Source: Escherichia phage vB_EcoM_PhAPEC2
Reading direction: 5' to 3' (one strand)
Sequence record: NC_024794.1
Length of the DNA stretch: 64,000 bases
Shown: one piece after another, positions 28,608 to 48,400 of the stretch
Layout of the letters: each line of letters begins with the position of its first letter
How positions within the stretch are numbered: the first letter of the stretch is position 1
Translations under genes and position numbers: made by a program
The notes under the pieces: generated by a model
What the model was told of the DNA's origin: nothing
Database searches by the model: none
What the model saw: the letters and a program-made list of their open reading frames with translations, nothing else

Positions 28608-28632
28608 CGATAGATTAATAATACCATACTAT
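28608..28632 (-). promoter_or_regulatory. Middle (MotA-dependent) promoter upstream of gene 31
   Basis: On the minus strand: MotA box TGCTTTA, 12-nt spacer, TATTAT, about 20 nt upstream of gene 31 ATG. Confidence 0.6.
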
Positions 28633-28644
28633 TCGTAAAGCATA

Positions 28645-28953
28645 TTACATAAGAAGCAAACGTTCTACCGGAGTACCATCAACAGAAATTACTTTATCAA
28701 GGCGGAAAGAACGCCACTGACCTAACTCGGTATCGAATGCTCTAACTGATTCACGAGGTTCATAACGAACTTCTGTTGCCGGATTGTTATTTTCATATTT
28801 GACTTCAAGTTCATCGCGCGAAGCAAACATAGTGCGTACCTCGCCGTTAGCCTTTTCAAATACAACACAATGAACGCCTACAGACAGAATAGTTTTAATA
28901 CGTTCACGAAGAACCATAGTTTCTTGTTCAGTTAAAATCATATTATTCACCAC
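28645..28953 (-). CDS. Hypothetical protein (102 aa), 31.1-like
   Basis: ORF between cd and 31. Confidence 0.45.
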   Translation of the reverse strand: MVNNMILTEQETMVLRERIKTILSVGVHCVVFEKANGEVRTMFASRDELEVKYENNNPATEVRYEPRESVRAFDTELGQWRSFRLDKVISVDGTPVERLLLM

Positions 28954-29524
28954 AAAAGTTTCGGATTTGTTCCCAATTCAGAGAACGAAGATTATTACGA
29001 GAGTACTGAATTACTTCAATACCAGCTTGTTTTAGAATGTCTGCCCAATTTTCAGGAGACCGGTCATATAATTCTGCATATACAACCTTTTTAATACCTG
29101 ACTGTGTAATAGCTTTAGTGCAATCAGGACATGGAGAAAGCGTCGTATACAACGTAGCACCTTCAATAGAATTACCTTTACGAGCTGCAAACAAAATTGC
29201 ATTCAATTCCGCATGGATTTCATTATTAGCAGACCATGCACTATGAGCGGCCCGATGTTCTTTAGCCAAAACAAAATTATCCACCCGTCCAAATGCTGTA
29301 GTGCCTTCTTTATGCCCAGCAACGATGACCGGGCTTGGTTTATTCTTCAACCAACCGTTTTCGGATGCATGTTCGCAACAGTTTGTACCACCTGAAGGAG
29401 AGCCATTATAACCTGTAGAAATAATGCGTCCATCTTTTTCAATGACGGCACCAACTTTCCATGAACAACATTTTGATTCTTGAGAAATCAGATATGCAAT
29501 CTGAAGGTATGTGCTAGCTTTCAT
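28943..29524 (-). CDS. cd: dCMP deaminase
   Basis: 193 aa, same as T4 Cd; zinc-binding HAE ... PCPDC deaminase motifs. Confidence 0.9.
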   Translation of the reverse strand: MKASTYLQIAYLISQESKCCSWKVGAVIEKDGRIISTGYNGSPSGGTNCCEHASENGWLKNKPSPVIVAGHKEGTTAFGRVDNFVLAKEHRAAHSAWSANNEIHAELNAILFAARKGNSIEGATLYTTLSPCPDCTKAITQSGIKKVVYAELYDRSPENWADILKQAGIEVIQYSRNNLRSLNWEQIRNFCGE

Positions 29525-30516
29525 TATTGAACCTTATTAATATAAGTTAACAGCTCTTTAGTTTGTTCCCAACTGATGCACGCATCGGTAATGGAAACGC
29601 CATAGGACATATTATCAGAAATTTTTTGATTTCCTTCATGTAGGAATGATTCTATCATAATTCCTTTGACCAAATCATTAGCTGCTAAATTTTTACCAAT
29701 ACCAATTTGATTGCTATAATGCCCATCAGCGTTTGCATGGCTACAGTCAACCATTACATAATGATTCAGACCTACTGCCCTTGCTTTGTTAGAAGCTTCT
29801 TGAATATCAGAAGAATGATAGTTCGGGCCGTTGGTCCCGCCACGCAATACGATATGCGTATTCTGATTACCTTCAGCTTCAACAATGCCTACAGTACCAT
29901 CGACGTCCATACCCATATACCGATGAGGCCAGGCGGCACTATACATCGCGTCTGTAGCTACTTTAATAGAACCATTGGTTGCGTTCTTGAAGCCTACGCA
30001 CATCGGTAGACCTGAAGCAATTTCACGATGTGTCTGACTTTCAGTCGTACGGGCGCCAATAGCAACCCATGAGAAAATACCAGAAAGATACTTAATCGTG
30101 AATGGGTCTAATACTTCAGTTGCTAATGGAAGTCCCATACGTAGAAGTTTACGACACAATGTTCGTGCAACTATAAGACCGTGGTTCATATCAAAACTTC
30201 CGTCAAGATATGGATCATTTACAAGACCTTTCCAACCTACGGTAGTTCGAGGCTTTTCAAAATAAACGCGCATCACTAACAGAACATTAGGAAGACGAGT
30301 TTGAAGTTCAGCCAGACGTTTGCCGTATTCAACAGCAGCAATAGGGTCATGAATTGAACAAGGACCTACAACAATAAGTTTGCGTGGGTCTTCACCATTC
30401 ATAATCGAATTAACTTGTTCGCGATGAGAAGCCACTTGTGATGCGTAAGCTTCCGACAAAGGAATAATCTCAGCCAGTTCTTTTGGAGAAATAAGTTTTC
30501 CGACGACAGGTAACAT
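29524..30516 (-). CDS. 3-deoxy-D-arabino-heptulosonate 7-phosphate (DAHP) synthase, class I (AroG/AroF/AroH-like)
   Basis: 330 aa; motifs VVGPCSIHDP, VMRVYFEKPRTTVGWKGL, GARTTESQ, GFKN, ILRGG, DCSHAN, ESFLHEGNQ, SITDAC align with E. coli AroG catalytic and metal-binding residues (from memory); start overlaps cd stop. Confidence 0.85.
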   Translation of the reverse strand: MLPVVGKLISPKELAEIIPLSEAYASQVASHREQVNSIMNGEDPRKLIVVGPCSIHDPIAAVEYGKRLAELQTRLPNVLLVMRVYFEKPRTTVGWKGLVNDPYLDGSFDMNHGLIVARTLCRKLLRMGLPLATEVLDPFTIKYLSGIFSWVAIGARTTESQTHREIASGLPMCVGFKNATNGSIKVATDAMYSAAWPHRYMGMDVDGTVGIVEAEGNQNTHIVLRGGTNGPNYHSSDIQEASNKARAVGLNHYVMVDCSHANADGHYSNQIGIGKNLAANDLVKGIMIESFLHEGNQKISDNMSYGVSITDACISWEQTKELLTYINKVQ

Positions 30517-30636
30517 AACAATCCTTAGGAGATATAAACAGATTCTGATTCAACAATACCTTTAACCGGATTAGACAGGCTAAGTTGGTAGTGCTCAGAT
30601 TTATGACCATTCTCGATAGTAATTAGATAGCTCTCA

Positions 30637-30873
30637 TTATAGTGTTCCATATACTCGAGTTGCTTCAACAAGACCATCACTGCCTAATTTAAGATTAGTA
30701 ATTTGGTCACCATCTTTAGGATTAACGATTATGAGAAAAGAACGTGGAGATTCTTGAATAACTCGTAATGTTGCATCCTGGAAACGTTCAGATACTTTAT
30801 TAATCAAAGTCTGAGCGAACTCTTTTACTTTAACATGAAATTCTTGAAGCGTGATAGGTTTTTCACTTAACAT
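30637..30873 (-). CDS. Hypothetical protein (78 aa)
   Basis: ORF in cd-pseT intergenic cluster. Confidence 0.4.
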   Translation of the reverse strand: MLSEKPITLQEFHVKVKEFAQTLINKVSERFQDATLRVIQESPRSFLIIVNPKDGDQITNLKLGSDGLVEATRVYGTL

Positions 30874-30934
30874 TCTGTTTTCCTCATTGTGTTGGTAGAG
30901 TCATAGTATCACAACTCCACCATGTTGTAAACCA

Positions 30935-31613: not shown

Positions 31614-31614
<1 letters not shown>
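31423..31614 (-). CDS. Hypothetical protein (63 aa)
   Basis: ORF whose start overlaps pseT stop. Confidence 0.4.
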
Positions 31615-32700
<1,086 letters not shown>

Positions 32701-45488: not shown

Positions 45489-48400
45489 ATGGTTGACATC
45501 AAACGTAAGTTCAGGGCCGAAGATGGTCTTGACGCAGGCGGTGATAAGATAGTTAACGTTGCGCTTGCTGACCGCACAGTTGGCACCGATGGCGTGAACG
45601 TTGACTTTTTGGTGCAAGAAAACACCGTACAGAATTATGACGATACGCGCGCGTATACAAAAGATTTTATTGTTCTTTATGATAATCGTTTTTATCAAGC
45701 TTTAAGTGATATTCCAGCTCCGGCAGGCCCTTTCTCTTTGGCTAAATGGAAGGCAACTCGTACAGATGCAGAATGGATTACAGTTCAAGGCGGAGATTTC
45801 CAATTATCAGTAGGTAACTCTATTGCGGTTGATACTTCAGCTGGCACTGATATTAATTTCACTTTGCCTCAAAATCCTTTAGATGGCGATACAGTTATTT
45901 TGTCTGATATTGGCGGTAGAGTAGGCTATGTAAAAGTTCAAATTACTGCAGCGGCTCAAAGTATTGTAGACTTTAGAGGACAACAGGTTCGTTCAGTTTT
46001 AATGACGCACCCAAAATCTAAAATGGTCTTCATTTTTAGCAACCGCCTATGGCAAATGTATGTTTCCGATTACGAACGTAATGCAGTCACAGTAACTCCT
46101 GCCACGCCATATCAAGCGCAACCTAATGATTTTATCATTCGACGTTTTACATCAGCCGCTCCTATTAATATTACATTGCCTCGTAATGCTAATAATGGCG
46201 ATATTATTAATTTAGTGGATTTAGACAAATTAAACCCATTATATCACACAATTGTCAAAACTTACGATGAAACAACTTCTATACGAGAAGCTGGTGTTCA
46301 TGTAGCAGAAGGACGTAATACTGCGGAAGCATTCTTTGTTTATGATTCTGCCAATAGTTTATGGCGTGTTTGGGAAGGTGACCAGAAATCTCGTTTACGT
46401 ATAGTTCGTAATGATACTGATTTACGCCCTAATGAAGAAGTTCTTGTTTTTGGAACTAATAATGATACAATCTCGACGGTAAATCTTACTTTGCCTACAG
46501 ATATTTTGTCTGGCGATACTGTTAAAATATCGTTGAATTATATGCGTAAAGGGCAAACTGTAAAAATTAAAGCTGCTGAAGGCGATACAATTGCTAGCAG
46601 TATTTCTTTATTACAGTTCCCAAAACGTTCGGAGTATCCACCTGATGCACAATGGGTTTCTGTTAGTGAGCTGGAATTTAATGGTGATACTTCGTATGTA
46701 CCTGTACTTGAGTTAGCTTATATAGAAGATTATTCATCTGAAACAAAATATTGGGTAGTTCAACAAAACACCGTAACCGTTGAACGAGTCGATGCATCGA
46801 GCAATACAACTCGAGCTCGTTTAGGTGTTATTGCTCTTGCTTCTCAAGCGCAAGCAAATGTTGATTTAGAAAATGCTCCTGGTAAAGAACTGGCTATTAC
46901 TCCGGAAACATTAGCAAATCGTACAGCAACTGAAACTCGTCGTGGTATTGCTCGTATTGCAACAACTGCACAAGTTAACCAGAATACCGATTTTGCATTC
47001 CAAGACGACTTGATTATTTCTCCTAAGAAATTGAACGAACGTACAGCAACTGAAACCCGTAGAGGTGTTGCTGAAGTTGCAACTCAGGCTGAAACTAATG
47101 CTGGAACAGATGACACCACTATTATTACTCCTAAGAAATTGGATGCCCGTCAAGGTTCTGAAGTTTTATCTGGTATTGTAAAATACACATCTACGACTGG
47201 TACTACAGCTGCTACTATTCGTGGTAATGCTGGGACTAATGTTTATAACAAAGCCGTAGATAATTTAACTATTTCTCCAAAGGCCCTTGACCAATATAAA
47301 GCTACCCCTACTCAGCAGGGTGCAGTAATTCTTGCTATTGAAAGTGAAGTTATCGCCGGCGAATCACAAGCCGGTTGGGCTAATGCTGTAGTGACCCCTG
47401 AAACTCTGCATAAGAAAACTTCTACTGATGGACGTATTGGTTTAATTGAAATTGCTACGCAAGCAGAAACTAATGATGGGACCGATTATACACGTGCAGT
47501 AACGCCTAAGACATTAAATGATAGGAGAGCGACGGAAGGATTATCCGGCATAGCCGAAATTGCTACGCAAGTTGAATTTGATACTGGAACTGATGATACT
47601 CGTATCTCGACTCCACTGAAAATTAAAACTCATTTTGATTCTTCTGACCGTACCAGTGTTAATTCTGATTCCGGACTTATTGAAGAAGGAACCTTGTGGA
47701 ACCATTATACTCTTGATATTTCTAAAGCAAATGAAACACAACGTGGTACACTTCGCGTAGCGACCCAGGCAGAATCTAATGCAGGAACTTTAGATGATGT
47801 TCTTATTACTCCTAAAAAGCTTTTAGGGACTAAGTCCACTGAAACGTCTGAAGGCGTAATTAAGGTTGCTACTCAGGCTGAAACTGTAACAGGAACTTCT
47901 GCTAATACTGCTGTATCACCTAAGAATTTAAAATGGATTGTTCAATCAGAACCATCATGGACTGCTACTACGGCAATTCGTGGATTCGTTAAAACTTCAT
48001 CTGGTTCTATTACATTTGTTGGTAATGATACAGTTGGTTCAACACAATCTTTAGAATCATATGAGAAAAATAGCTATGCGGTATCACCATATGAATTAAA
48101 CCGTGTACTTGCTAACTACTTACCGTTGAAAGCTAAAGCAGCTGATAGTAATTTGTTAGATGGTCTAGATTCTCTTCAGTTCATCCGTAGAGACATCGAC
48201 CAGACGGTTAATGGTTCTTTAAGTCTTACTAAACAGACCAACCTGAGTGCTCCTTTAGTATCTACAAGCACTGCTTCTTTTGGTTCCGAAGCATCTGTTA
48301 CTCGTAGATTAACTCTTAATGACTCTAGCGGTTCCGAAATAGTTTTCACTAAAGGAACCCAATCTCTTAGTAATAAAGAGAATTTCGTTGTTAGAGCATG

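Follow-up and report, generated by a model that had tools for sequence, protein, structure and literature searches.

A type I-alpha DAHP synthase with a remodeled allosteric pocket on a very likely imported cassette between cd.2 and cd of Mosigvirus phages

We analyzed a 64,000-nucleotide stretch of Escherichia phage vB_EcoM_PhAPEC2 (NC_024794.1; hereinafter the window), in which a first-pass annotation made from the letters alone had singled out a gene for a DAHP synthase. The gene and the features around it are as follows:

28943..29524, minus strand: cd, encoding dCMP deaminase, directly downstream of the DAHP synthase gene, with its start overlapping the stop of that gene (ORF and record annotations).
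29515..29526, minus strand: right copy of a 12-bp direct repeat, TAATGAAAGCTA, in which the DAHP synthase stop TAA overlaps the cd ATG by one base.
29524..30516, minus strand: DAHP synthase gene, type I-alpha, phage clade, 330 aa (ORF; Pfam, NCBIfam, PHROG and PDB matches).
30522..30526, minus strand: Shine-Dalgarno-like AAGGA, 5 nt before the ATG (read from the sequence).
30525..30632, minus strand: truncated second cd.2 of foreign type, comprising the C-terminal ~33 codons (PF24005 DUF7320 and Smith-Waterman alignment).
30628..30639, minus strand: left copy of the 12-bp direct repeat, TAATGAGAGCTA, comprising the cd.2 stop and a remnant of the cd start.
30637..30873, minus strand: resident full-length cd.2, DUF7320 (Pfam 6e-36; aligns with the RB69 and T4 cd.2).
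30903..30931, minus strand: candidate sigma-70/T4-early-like promoter, TTTACA, 17 nt, TACTAT, with TG (consensus match between cd.3 and cd.2).

The DAHP synthase ORF, whose strand the first-pass annotation left unstated, opens with an ATG, and the preceding AAGGA overlaps the TAA (30525–30527) of the upstream remnant ORF. It had been described as coupled to cd through an ATGA overlap; it does adjoin cd, but the junction reads TAATG, with a one-base overlap at 29524. Its assignment to the early pseT–cd region stood, as did the statement that T4 has only small ORFs at this position, the same stretch being filled in the T4 record by cd.1–cd.5. The promoter-like site is identical in RB69 and is placed where the T4 record notes the early promoter Pe133295. 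Promoter and terminator scans of the region gave no excess over shuffles, with the promoter match statistically no better than chance, so that the support for this early promoter candidate is its positional conservation with T4 and RB69. No terminator-like site was found on the minus strand between the promoter candidate and cd; the DAHP synthase would probably be made early, on one transcript with cd.2 and cd.

Profile searches placed the window protein above the curated cut-offs of Pfam (PF00793, E 4.3e-75, 252.6 bits; cut-off 25.5 bits) and NCBIfam (TIGR00034 aroFGH, 427.9 bits, cut-off 173.2; NF009395, 455.3 bits, cut-off 343), and below those of the AroG-specific (363; cut-off 568) and AroH-specific (387; cut-off 463) NCBIfam models. 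The phrog_5045 profile, a phage phospho-2-dehydro-3-deoxyheptonate aldolase of the category 'moron/AMG', was recovered with an E-value of 2.8e-182, residues 1–330 aligning with profile positions 8–337 of 341. The best solved structure by sequence is E. coli AroF (PDB 6agm, 7e-105, residues 8–327 aligned). An AF2 model of the protein (pLDDT 92.1, pTM 0.91) displays the (beta/alpha)8 barrel with the N-terminal extension and the beta6a/beta6b hairpin, and in Foldseek searches superposes on E. coli AroG (8e0u, 1gg1) and likewise on the DAH7PS of N. meningitidis (TM 0.96, rmsd 1.4 A in both cases). These matches, along with the active-site residues, bear out the first-pass reading of a complete class I DAHP synthase and confirm that the gene encodes a full-length enzyme of type I-alpha.

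Fourteen catalytic positions (C61, R92, K97–T100, G163–R165, K186, R234, H268, E302 and D326; AroG numbering) are invariant across the 31 phage-clade and 98 bacterial sequences that we compared. They include Cys61, His268, Glu302 and Asp326, which we take to be the metal ligands from the published AroG structures, and the PEP/E4P-binding R92, K97-P98-R99-T100, G163-A164-R165, K186 and R234. The metal-ligand and PEP-binding residues previously read as retained are hence all intact where checked, as are those for E4P; the motifs GPCSIHD, KPRTT, GARTTESQ, GFKN, DCSHAN, ESFLHEG and ITDAC are present as reported, whereas the claimed ILRGG reads IVLRGG. In all likelihood the phage enzyme is catalytically active, and it would convert PEP and erythrose 4-phosphate to DAHP and Pi in a metal-dependent reaction.

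A shifted, KDO8P-synthase-like specificity, e.g., the use of PEP and of arabinose 5-phosphate from the phage KdsD-like isomerase in sugar or DNA-modification chemistry, would be in keeping with PF00793 being common to DAHP and KDO8P synthases, with the weak acceptance of arabinose 5-phosphate by E. coli DAHP synthase, and with the presence of both synthase and isomerase in Mosigvirus, Kanagawavirus, Winklervirus and a Proteus phage. We nevertheless give it hardly any credence. KDO8P synthase carries another motif where DAHP synthases have KPRT(S/T), and the window protein has KPRTT, of the DAHP synthase type, which is invariant together with all the E4P/PEP residues. NCBIfam returned DAHP synthase models only, and not KdsA (KDO8P synthase); no protein other than a DAHP synthase was seen among the best 50 Foldseek PDB matches or all 21 sequence matches. 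Further, RB69 makes arabinosylated DNA without a DAHP synthase gene, and the synthase occurs without the isomerase in at least 22 Klebsiella phage records, as does the isomerase without the synthase in at least 53 Acinetobacter phage records. We also rejected a connection with arabinosyl-5-hydroxycytosine, the DNA modification found in RB69-like phages: RB69 is modified but lacks the gene, which is also absent from the NAR 2026 paper on the pathway. A tblastn survey with the RB69 A5P isomerase as query found the isomerase in 57 Acinetobacter phage records against four synthase matches, at least one of which is a bacterial contig, and, in Klebsiella phages, the synthase in 25 records against the isomerase in at most three. 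We regard it as quite improbable that the role of the enzyme is to drain erythrose 4-phosphate and/or PEP and so turn central carbon, through the non-oxidative pentose phosphate pathway, toward pentose phosphates for nucleotide synthesis and, in these phages, arabinose for DNA modification: by standard pathway stoichiometry, F6P and G3P can give rise to pentose phosphates with no need to drain E4P, and carriage of the gene is untied to the arabinose pathway in either direction. Consistent with such a role are the nucleotide-metabolism genes in the neighborhood (cd here; nrdAB, td and frd upstream) and the arabinose-5-phosphate pathway, drawing on ribulose 5-phosphate, that many carriers encode (PMC13326640).

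The novelty implied by the first-pass annotation did not survive: the gene is already known and is annotated in over 100 phage genomes, GenBank phage records carry an identical protein under the name DAHP synthase, and the gene belongs to phrog_5045 and has been mentioned as an auxiliary metabolic gene. The databased phage DAHP synthases (phrog_5045; KLB31 of Kanagawavirus, ORF64 of phiC120 and 'AroG' of Shf125875) are the same gene. It is carried by ~138 of 149 Mosigvirus records, many of which annotate as such a protein identical or at least 99% identical to that of the window, and is lacking in RB69 and about five other Mosigviruses, with moha, JK36 and JK42 among those without it. Orthologues in other genera (58–77% identity) occupy the same locus, and this position, in the order pseT-cd.2-DAHPS-cd, recurs in six genera or more; the survey of the cd–pseT junction of T4-like genomes proposed earlier returns the gene in Mosigvirus and other genera, with T4 and RB69 lacking it. 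For work on any phage DAHP synthase, the searchable literature gave only passing mentions in genome papers; no enzyme assay, expression study or mutant phenotype was found in it.

In Mosigvirus, the gene lies on a 1.1-kb cassette with a truncated foreign cd.2 copy, flanked by the 12-bp duplication of the cd start, whose two copies stand at a distance of 1113 bp; in RB69, TAATGAAAGCTA occurs once and cd.2 is joined directly to cd. The cd.2 remnant matches the Cd.2 family profile PF24005 (DUF7320; E 1.2e-6, profile positions 44–76 of 78) and aligns with the Kanagawavirus cd.2 with a Smith-Waterman score of 71 (shuffles 22.7 ± 4.4; 0 of 2000 reached 71), against only 30 with the resident cd.2. 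In some records the remnant is listed as an ORF of 41 aa. Whereas cd.2, the DAHP synthase gene and cd are contiguous in Kanagawavirus and Klebsiella phage VAC36, the Mosigvirus copy instead sits on a cassette together with a piece of a foreign cd.2, and we hold it very likely that this cassette was imported. The source would be another T-even-like lineage and the point of entry the first 12 nt of cd, followed by recent spread through Mosigvirus; metagenomic contigs with the closest non-Mosigvirus proteins share the synteny, and none provides a donor closer than Kanagawavirus. The synonymous diversity of the cassette is 10–30 times below that of the neighboring cd, which suggests that its spread through Mosigvirus was indeed recent. 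Recent capture from the host was ruled out by the 44–51% identity to E. coli AroF, AroG and AroH, and is also disfavored by the nearest bacterial homologues, which are ~50–55% identical and come from unrelated phyla, and by the GC content of the gene (~41–44% against 36–40% locally).

Between genera the DAHP synthase is under purifying selection, with dN/dS of 0.15–0.23 (e.g., the CIP9/PEi26 pair, dS 0.62, dN/dS 0.16). This weighs against the gene being a mere passenger, carried along as recombination spreads the cassette within a hyperplastic region, with no benefit to the phage. Such a passenger could account for the discrete imported cassette with repeat-flanked ends, for the dispensability of the gene in RB69, moha, JK36, JK42 and others, and for the within-Mosigvirus differences, which are few and mostly non-synonymous (7 N vs 3 S and 6 N vs 1 S). 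However, the low dN/dS extends over deep divergence, the catalytic residues are invariant in 31 sequences, the position recurs across genera as noted above, and the cassette has no homing endonuclease or other mobility gene; we consider this alternative highly improbable.

The E. coli isozymes AroF, AroG and AroH are of the same family, fold and length class as the phage protein, with identical metal, PEP and E4P residues. The phage protein is 50.5% identical to AroF, 47.1% to AroG and 43.5% to AroH, its distance to AroF being about that between the three host isozymes, and the phage proteins are monophyletic (NJ bootstrap 189/200). It differs from all three isozymes in two short deletions, common to all strabovirus orthologues, and in lacking the first 8–9 residues. 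Alignment with AroG and AroF confirms the shorter N-terminus that had been noted relative to AroG, the protein beginning at about residue 9 of AroG or residue 10 of AroF. As no in-frame start lies further upstream, the short N-terminus is real; a mis-called start hiding a longer one was also ruled out by all 31 clade members being short. Residues 6–8 are absent in 31 of 31 phage proteins, and the segment before Cys61 measures 48–52 residues in them against at least 58 in bacteria.

An intact aromatic-amino-acid pocket, comprising residues 6–10 of the partner subunit along with P150, Q151, S180 and F209, was not found. At 151, 180, 150 and 209, where it differs from the host isozymes, the window protein has K, P, I and Y: Q151 (98/98 bacterial sequences) is K or R in all 31 phage proteins, S180 (96/98) is P in all 31, F209 (98/98) is Y in all 31, and P150 is I in 30 of them. 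When columns that set the clade apart were sought without bias, only 151, 155, 180, 209 and 223 emerged, each of them within the allosteric region. The clade-defining substitutions are Q151K, D155G, S180P, F209Y and T223A; these five support an enzyme that would be either deregulated or re-regulated. D146 (AroG numbering) is retained, as is the Gly211 shared with AroF and 96 of the 98 bacterial homologues. In the E. coli enzymes, single substitutions at 150, 151/152 and 180 yield feedback resistance (AroG P150L, AroG S180F, AroF Q152I), as does AroF N8K (PMC11843938). Compared with the engineered AroG P150L, S180F and D146N and AroF Q152I, P148L and N8K, the phage clade is substituted at 150, 151/152 and 180, lacks the region containing AroF N8, has I, K and P where the engineered enzymes have L, I and F, and leaves D146 unchanged; its changes are several, simultaneous and fixed by evolution, and the resistance in its case is predicted. 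With the N-terminal cap deleted and Q151K, P150I, S180P, F209Y, D155G and T223A in place, Tyr, Phe and Trp most likely no longer inhibit the enzyme. The deregulation proposed earlier from the N-terminus, which thus extends to the replacements at 150, 151 and 180, is supported by the alignments, and we lean toward a phage DAHP synthase that is insensitive to aromatic amino acids.

The main alternative to insensitivity is an active but re-regulated isozyme, still under allosteric control by tyrosine or by a different effector, such as another aromatic or a phage-specific metabolite. The pocket-lining positions have a mean major-residue frequency of 0.97 in the phage clade, near-invariant across genera, against 0.74 for the protein as a whole, so that a pocket still functional, with another ligand or a structural role, fits better than a dead site. 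The predicted model retains the beta6a/beta6b hairpin with the whole regulatory subdomain, and the closest solved relative, AroF, shares the G211 that the phage protein keeps. Moreover, in a broader family sample Q151 is found in 84 of 150 sequences and S180 in 98 of 150; because natural lineages vary at these pocket positions, substitution by itself is no proof of insensitivity. Against re-regulation, the replaced residues are exactly those at which single changes abolish inhibition in E. coli (PMC11843938) and include the Gln that hydrogen-bonds the inhibitor, and the N-terminal cap is missing in 31 of 31 members; we deem it rather unlikely. The I-K-P-Y-G signature had no bacterial source among the best 150 of a 50%-identity representative library. 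That library does contain other lineages in which the pocket is variant and the N-terminus short.

Returning to the deregulated enzyme, the phage gene would also be outside host TyrR/TrpR repression, and its product, with an allosteric pocket remodeled by loss of the cap and by clade-wide substitutions and most likely freed from aromatic inhibition, might sustain the entry of carbon into the shikimate/chorismate pathway once the host is shut off, via the remaining downstream enzymes of the host. This would yield aromatic amino acids as well as cofactors derived from chorismate, among them folate and quinones. That this supply is the physiological purpose we put forward tentatively, as a proposition a little short of even. 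Our explanation as a whole, namely a competent, deregulated, early-made DAHP synthase that sits on an imported cassette and feeds the shikimate pathway, is one that we favor with modest confidence. The phage encodes no downstream shikimate enzymes, and RB69 and about five other Mosigviruses manage without the gene, both of which speak against it. A broader reading is possible, if somewhat doubtful: T-even-like enterobacterial phages would have a fourth DAHP synthase isozyme of their own, with an inhibitor pocket rebuilt such that it no longer responds to the aromatic amino acids of the host, and the Mosigvirus copy, after its import from another phage lineage, would very recently have swept through almost the whole genus. 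Such a sweep would imply that driving carbon into the shikimate/chorismate pathway during infection brings a strong current selective advantage.

On present evidence, the gene as such had been annotated before; the remodeled pocket and the sweep are, as far as we found in the literature searched, apparently undescribed. DAHP synthase determines the flux toward Phe, Tyr, Trp, folate, quinones and siderophores, and a phage enzyme that ignores feedback would, if real, be a clear case of a virus overriding an amino-acid or cofactor control point in a model host, and one that is easily testable. Strain engineering might also profit from it as a naturally feedback-resistant enzyme. The near-fixed, apparently very young Mosigvirus allele and its empty-site relatives such as RB69 offer ready-made controls for the worth of the gene. 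T4-like phages carry auxiliary metabolic genes, e.g., the pentose-phosphate and nucleotide genes of cyanophages. The DAHP synthase is like these in being a host-derived enzyme for a flux-controlling step, by which a lytic phage would sustain a host pathway, whereas the shikimate pathway as its target is unusual for cultured enterobacterial phages.

The first-pass annotation had read the gene in the early cd-pseT region as a complete, apparently active and possibly deregulated DAHP synthase (the first enzyme of the shikimate pathway); the finding is real and this interpretation is correct.

29524-30516, minus strand: DAHP synthase ORF, 330 codons, ATG start

The identification is confirmed by the ORF itself, by matches to Pfam PF00793 (4.3e-75), the NCBIfam aroFGH equivalog TIGR00034 (428 bits; cut-off 173), the phage family phrog_5045 ('phospho-2-dehydro-3-deoxyheptonate aldolase'; 2.8e-182) and E. 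coli AroF (6agm; 7e-105, residues 8-327), and by an AlphaFold2 model (pLDDT 92.1) whose superposition on AroG from E. coli and DAH7PS from N. meningitidis gives a TM of 0.96 and an rmsd of 1.4 Å. An AAGGA lies 5 nucleotides ahead of the ATG, and the short N-terminus is genuine, because there is no in-frame start further upstream. At the other end the last base of the synthase TAA is the first base of the ATG of cd, the dCMP deaminase gene; the junction is accordingly TAATG, and not the ATGA overlap first proposed.

In an alignment of 31 phage-clade proteins with 98 bacterial homologues (the best-scoring ones with a length of 300 residues or more, the E. coli isozymes AroF, AroG and AroH among them), 14 positions (AroG numbering) are invariant throughout: Cys61, Arg92, Lys97-Pro98-Arg99-Thr100, Gly163-Ala164-Arg165, Lys186, Arg234, His268, Glu302 and Asp326. 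In AroG these positions supply the metal ligands and bind PEP and E4P, as in its published structures. Between phage genera the dN/dS is 0.15-0.23 (0.16 for CIP9/PEi26, the least saturated pair, with a dS of 0.62), which is the pattern expected of an enzyme retained for catalysis; such deep purifying selection argues against the gene being a selfish passenger.

The phage synthases form a single clade (NJ bootstrap 189/200), with identities of 50.5% to AroF, 47.1% to AroG and 43.5% to AroH, making it about as distant from these isozymes as they are from one another. All 31 phage proteins begin at about AroG residue 9 and hence lack residues 6-8, with 48-52 residues ahead of Cys61 versus at least 58 in the bacterial set. 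A scan for columns that are fixed in the phage clade, in which a different residue accounts for at least 90% of the bacterial set and the phage residue is rare in bacteria, yielded only five positions: Q151K, D155G, S180P, F209Y and T223A. These five and the nearly fixed P150I all fall outside the catalytic core, in the segment forming the inhibitor cavity. Published work is in line with such a role: the Gln that corresponds to Q151 makes a hydrogen bond to the bound amino acid (PMC10349828), and feedback-resistant enzymes result from AroG P150L, AroG S180F, AroF Q152I and N8K (PMC11843938). The altered cavity residues and the missing N-terminal ones thus support a deregulated enzyme, an idea that had initially rested on the N-terminal argument. 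Judged from sequence, insensitivity to feedback inhibition is likely, with two cautions: inside the phage clade conservation is higher for the pocket residues than elsewhere in the protein (0.97 vs 0.74), such that the phage pocket could still bind something, and pocket positions vary naturally among 150 representatives of a broader sample. A re-regulated enzyme, responsive to another effector, is a serious rival explanation. Tandem or fused enzymes of 730-799 aa, in which a DAHP-synthase stretch occurs twice, are also present in the representative library; one such protein is the library's best-scoring match to the phage synthase.

On the best reading, the phage encodes an active DAHP synthase beyond host transcriptional and feedback control, which would maintain supply through the shikimate/chorismate pathway during infection, when the host isozymes would be inhibited by their own end products and no longer replaced. 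Aromatic amino acids, folate and quinones are the candidate products that would matter; a rival holds that the enzyme is an E4P/PEP sink redirecting central carbon. A shifted substrate tied to arabinose chemistry was rejected: RB69 arabinosylates its DNA without a synthase gene, and carriage of the synthase and of phage arabinose-5-phosphate isomerase is mismatched in both directions.

The window comes from a Mosigvirus, an RB69-like T-even phage. Its synthase gene is widespread among phages and already annotated, so that finding it adds little that is new. The gene is 100% identical in nucleotide sequence to the copy in Escherichia phage ST2; megablast recovered it in 144 phage records (138 full-length) and tblastn recovered homologues in 211. 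Full-length Mosigvirus cd occurs in 149 records, of which 11 have an uninterrupted cd.2-cd junction (RB69 x2, ECO111 5-P, vB_Eco_mar005P1 x5, JK36, JK42 and moha), so that about 93% of Mosigvirus records carry the synthase. Orthologues with 58-77% identity occupy the same locus (pseT - small cd.x ORFs - cd.2 - synthase - 0-2 small ORFs - cd) in Kanagawavirus (CIP9, PEi26), Winklervirus (X20), Klebsiella phage VAC36, Bragavirus (PM2), Gualtarvirus (PSTRCR_127) and metagenomic contigs. T4, in contrast, has cd.1 at this position, and RB69 joins cd.2 directly to cd. A distant homologue (37%) in Aeromonas phage HJ05 has a different gene context. In the searchable literature we found passing mentions only, as a domain noted in a paper on phiC120 (PMC8022965) and as a hypothesised auxiliary metabolic gene in Klebsiella phage KLB31 (PMC11845039), and no enzymology or genetics of a phage DAHP synthase.

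Several records call for comment. CAKLQH020000056.1 ('Acinetobacter phage MD-2021a') was rejected as a carrier: this 13-kb contig, with aroF beside cobS, cobT and a ribazole phosphatase, looks like bacterial chromosome under a phage name and inflates phage DAHP synthase counts. The 90% cluster of the phage synthase bears the NCBI name '3-deoxy-7-phosphoheptulonate synthase [Escherichia coli]' from a 170,875-bp contig that is probably a phage genome inside a bacterial assembly. ST2 (OM982647) is placed in Guernseyvirinae; Kagunavirus, yet has a 171-kb T4-like (Mosigvirus-type) genome, and its annotated pseT CDS falls about 120 nt short of the window's 299-codon GTG-initiated ORF (31614-32513). 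OZ035759 ('Mosigvirus mar005p1') has the synthase, whereas the five vB_Eco_mar005P1 records (LR027383-LR027391) have the empty junction; the shared name covers either different isolates or a single phage with presence/absence variants. In Proteus phage PM2 and Providencia phage PSTRCR_127 pseT is separated by a SegD-like homing endonuclease gene from the small ORFs that precede the synthase, and PM2 and Serratia phage X20 have 1-2 additional small ORFs between the synthase and cd, marking the locus as a hyperplastic region.

Relative to RB69, the window carries 1113 bp of additional DNA in one block. The RB69 junction reads cd.2...CTATAATGAAAGCTAGCAC...cd, where the stop of cd.2 and the start of cd overlap in TAATG, and its 12-mer is present twice in the window:

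30639-30628, minus strand: left copy, TAATGAGAGCTA, directly after the resident cd.2
29526-29515, minus strand: right copy, TAATGAAAGCTA, at the synthase/cd junction

In the ~110 nt from the left copy to the synthase ATG, one frame reads ...SYLITIENGHKSEHYQLSLSNPVKGIVESESVYIS* and is the C-terminal half of a second cd.2 of Kanagawavirus/Klebsiella-phage type. Against CIP9 cd.2 this stretch has a Smith-Waterman score of 71 (shuffles 22.7 +/- 4.4, with 0/2000 reaching 71), and against the resident cd.2 only 30. Pfam places it in DUF7320, the Cd.2 family (1.2e-6; profile positions 44-76 of 78). At the junction, five bases, AGCTA, are common to the start of cd and the foreign cd.2. A 41-aa ORF annotated here in some records (30525-30650, minus strand; ST2, HX01_0229) is no independent gene but a chimeric remnant, with the foreign-type cd.2 3' half behind 12 nt of cd start. 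Most simply, an RB69-like empty-site ancestor would have recombined with a donor phage having contiguous cd.2-synthase-cd, with one illegitimate crossover at AGCTA, twelve bases into cd, and a homologous one within or beyond cd. Present-day empty-site phages may represent the ancestral state, or the cassette may have been lost from them again via the 12-bp repeats. Such phages offer natural controls for experiments on the synthase. This route of entry into Mosigvirus is new in this analysis.

Synonymous divergence was compared over the six pairs of four Mosigvirus species (the window phage, Shf125875, phi25-307 and HX01).

dS in the six pairs
29524-30516, minus strand, DAHP synthase: 0.004-0.013
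28943-29524, minus strand, cd: 0.14-0.32
31614-32513, pseT: 0.05-0.18
rnlA: 0.09-0.40
rIII: 0.30-0.65

Only 13 columns vary across ~29510-30800 (0 in 29834-30396), and 51 in the 582-bp cd gene. Database-wide, 131/138 full-length synthase copies, and 0 cd copies, have at least 99% identity to the window's allele of the gene in question. This fits a recent spread of one synthase allele by recombination in Mosigvirus, possibly a selective sweep; mosaicism, common in Mosigvirus genomes, bears on this reading of the low diversity. The remaining interest lies in this well-marked, apparently recent horizontal spread and in a clade of isozymes that is specific to phages and has its allosteric pocket rebuilt.

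The minus-strand gene order is pseT, four small ORFs, cd.2, synthase, cd, 31.1 and 31.

30931-30903, minus strand: promoter-like site (TTTACA, 17 nt, TACTAT, with TG) between cd.3 and cd.2

Early co-transcription of the synthase with cd is a reasonable inference, because this site is identical in RB69 and positioned as the early promoter Pe133295 noted in the T4 record, and no terminator-like site follows it on the minus strand up to cd; the promoter scan gave no statistical excess over shuffled sequence. Across the whole window, a middle-promoter pattern resembling the T4 MotA box (TGCTTNA, 10-14 nt, TANNNT) has 16 matches where 6.7 +/- 2.5 would be expected (0/100 shuffles reach 16). They lie mostly on the minus strand (e.g., 28618-28642, 31897-31921 and 47704-47729, all minus); one match immediately precedes gene 31 and another is within pseT.
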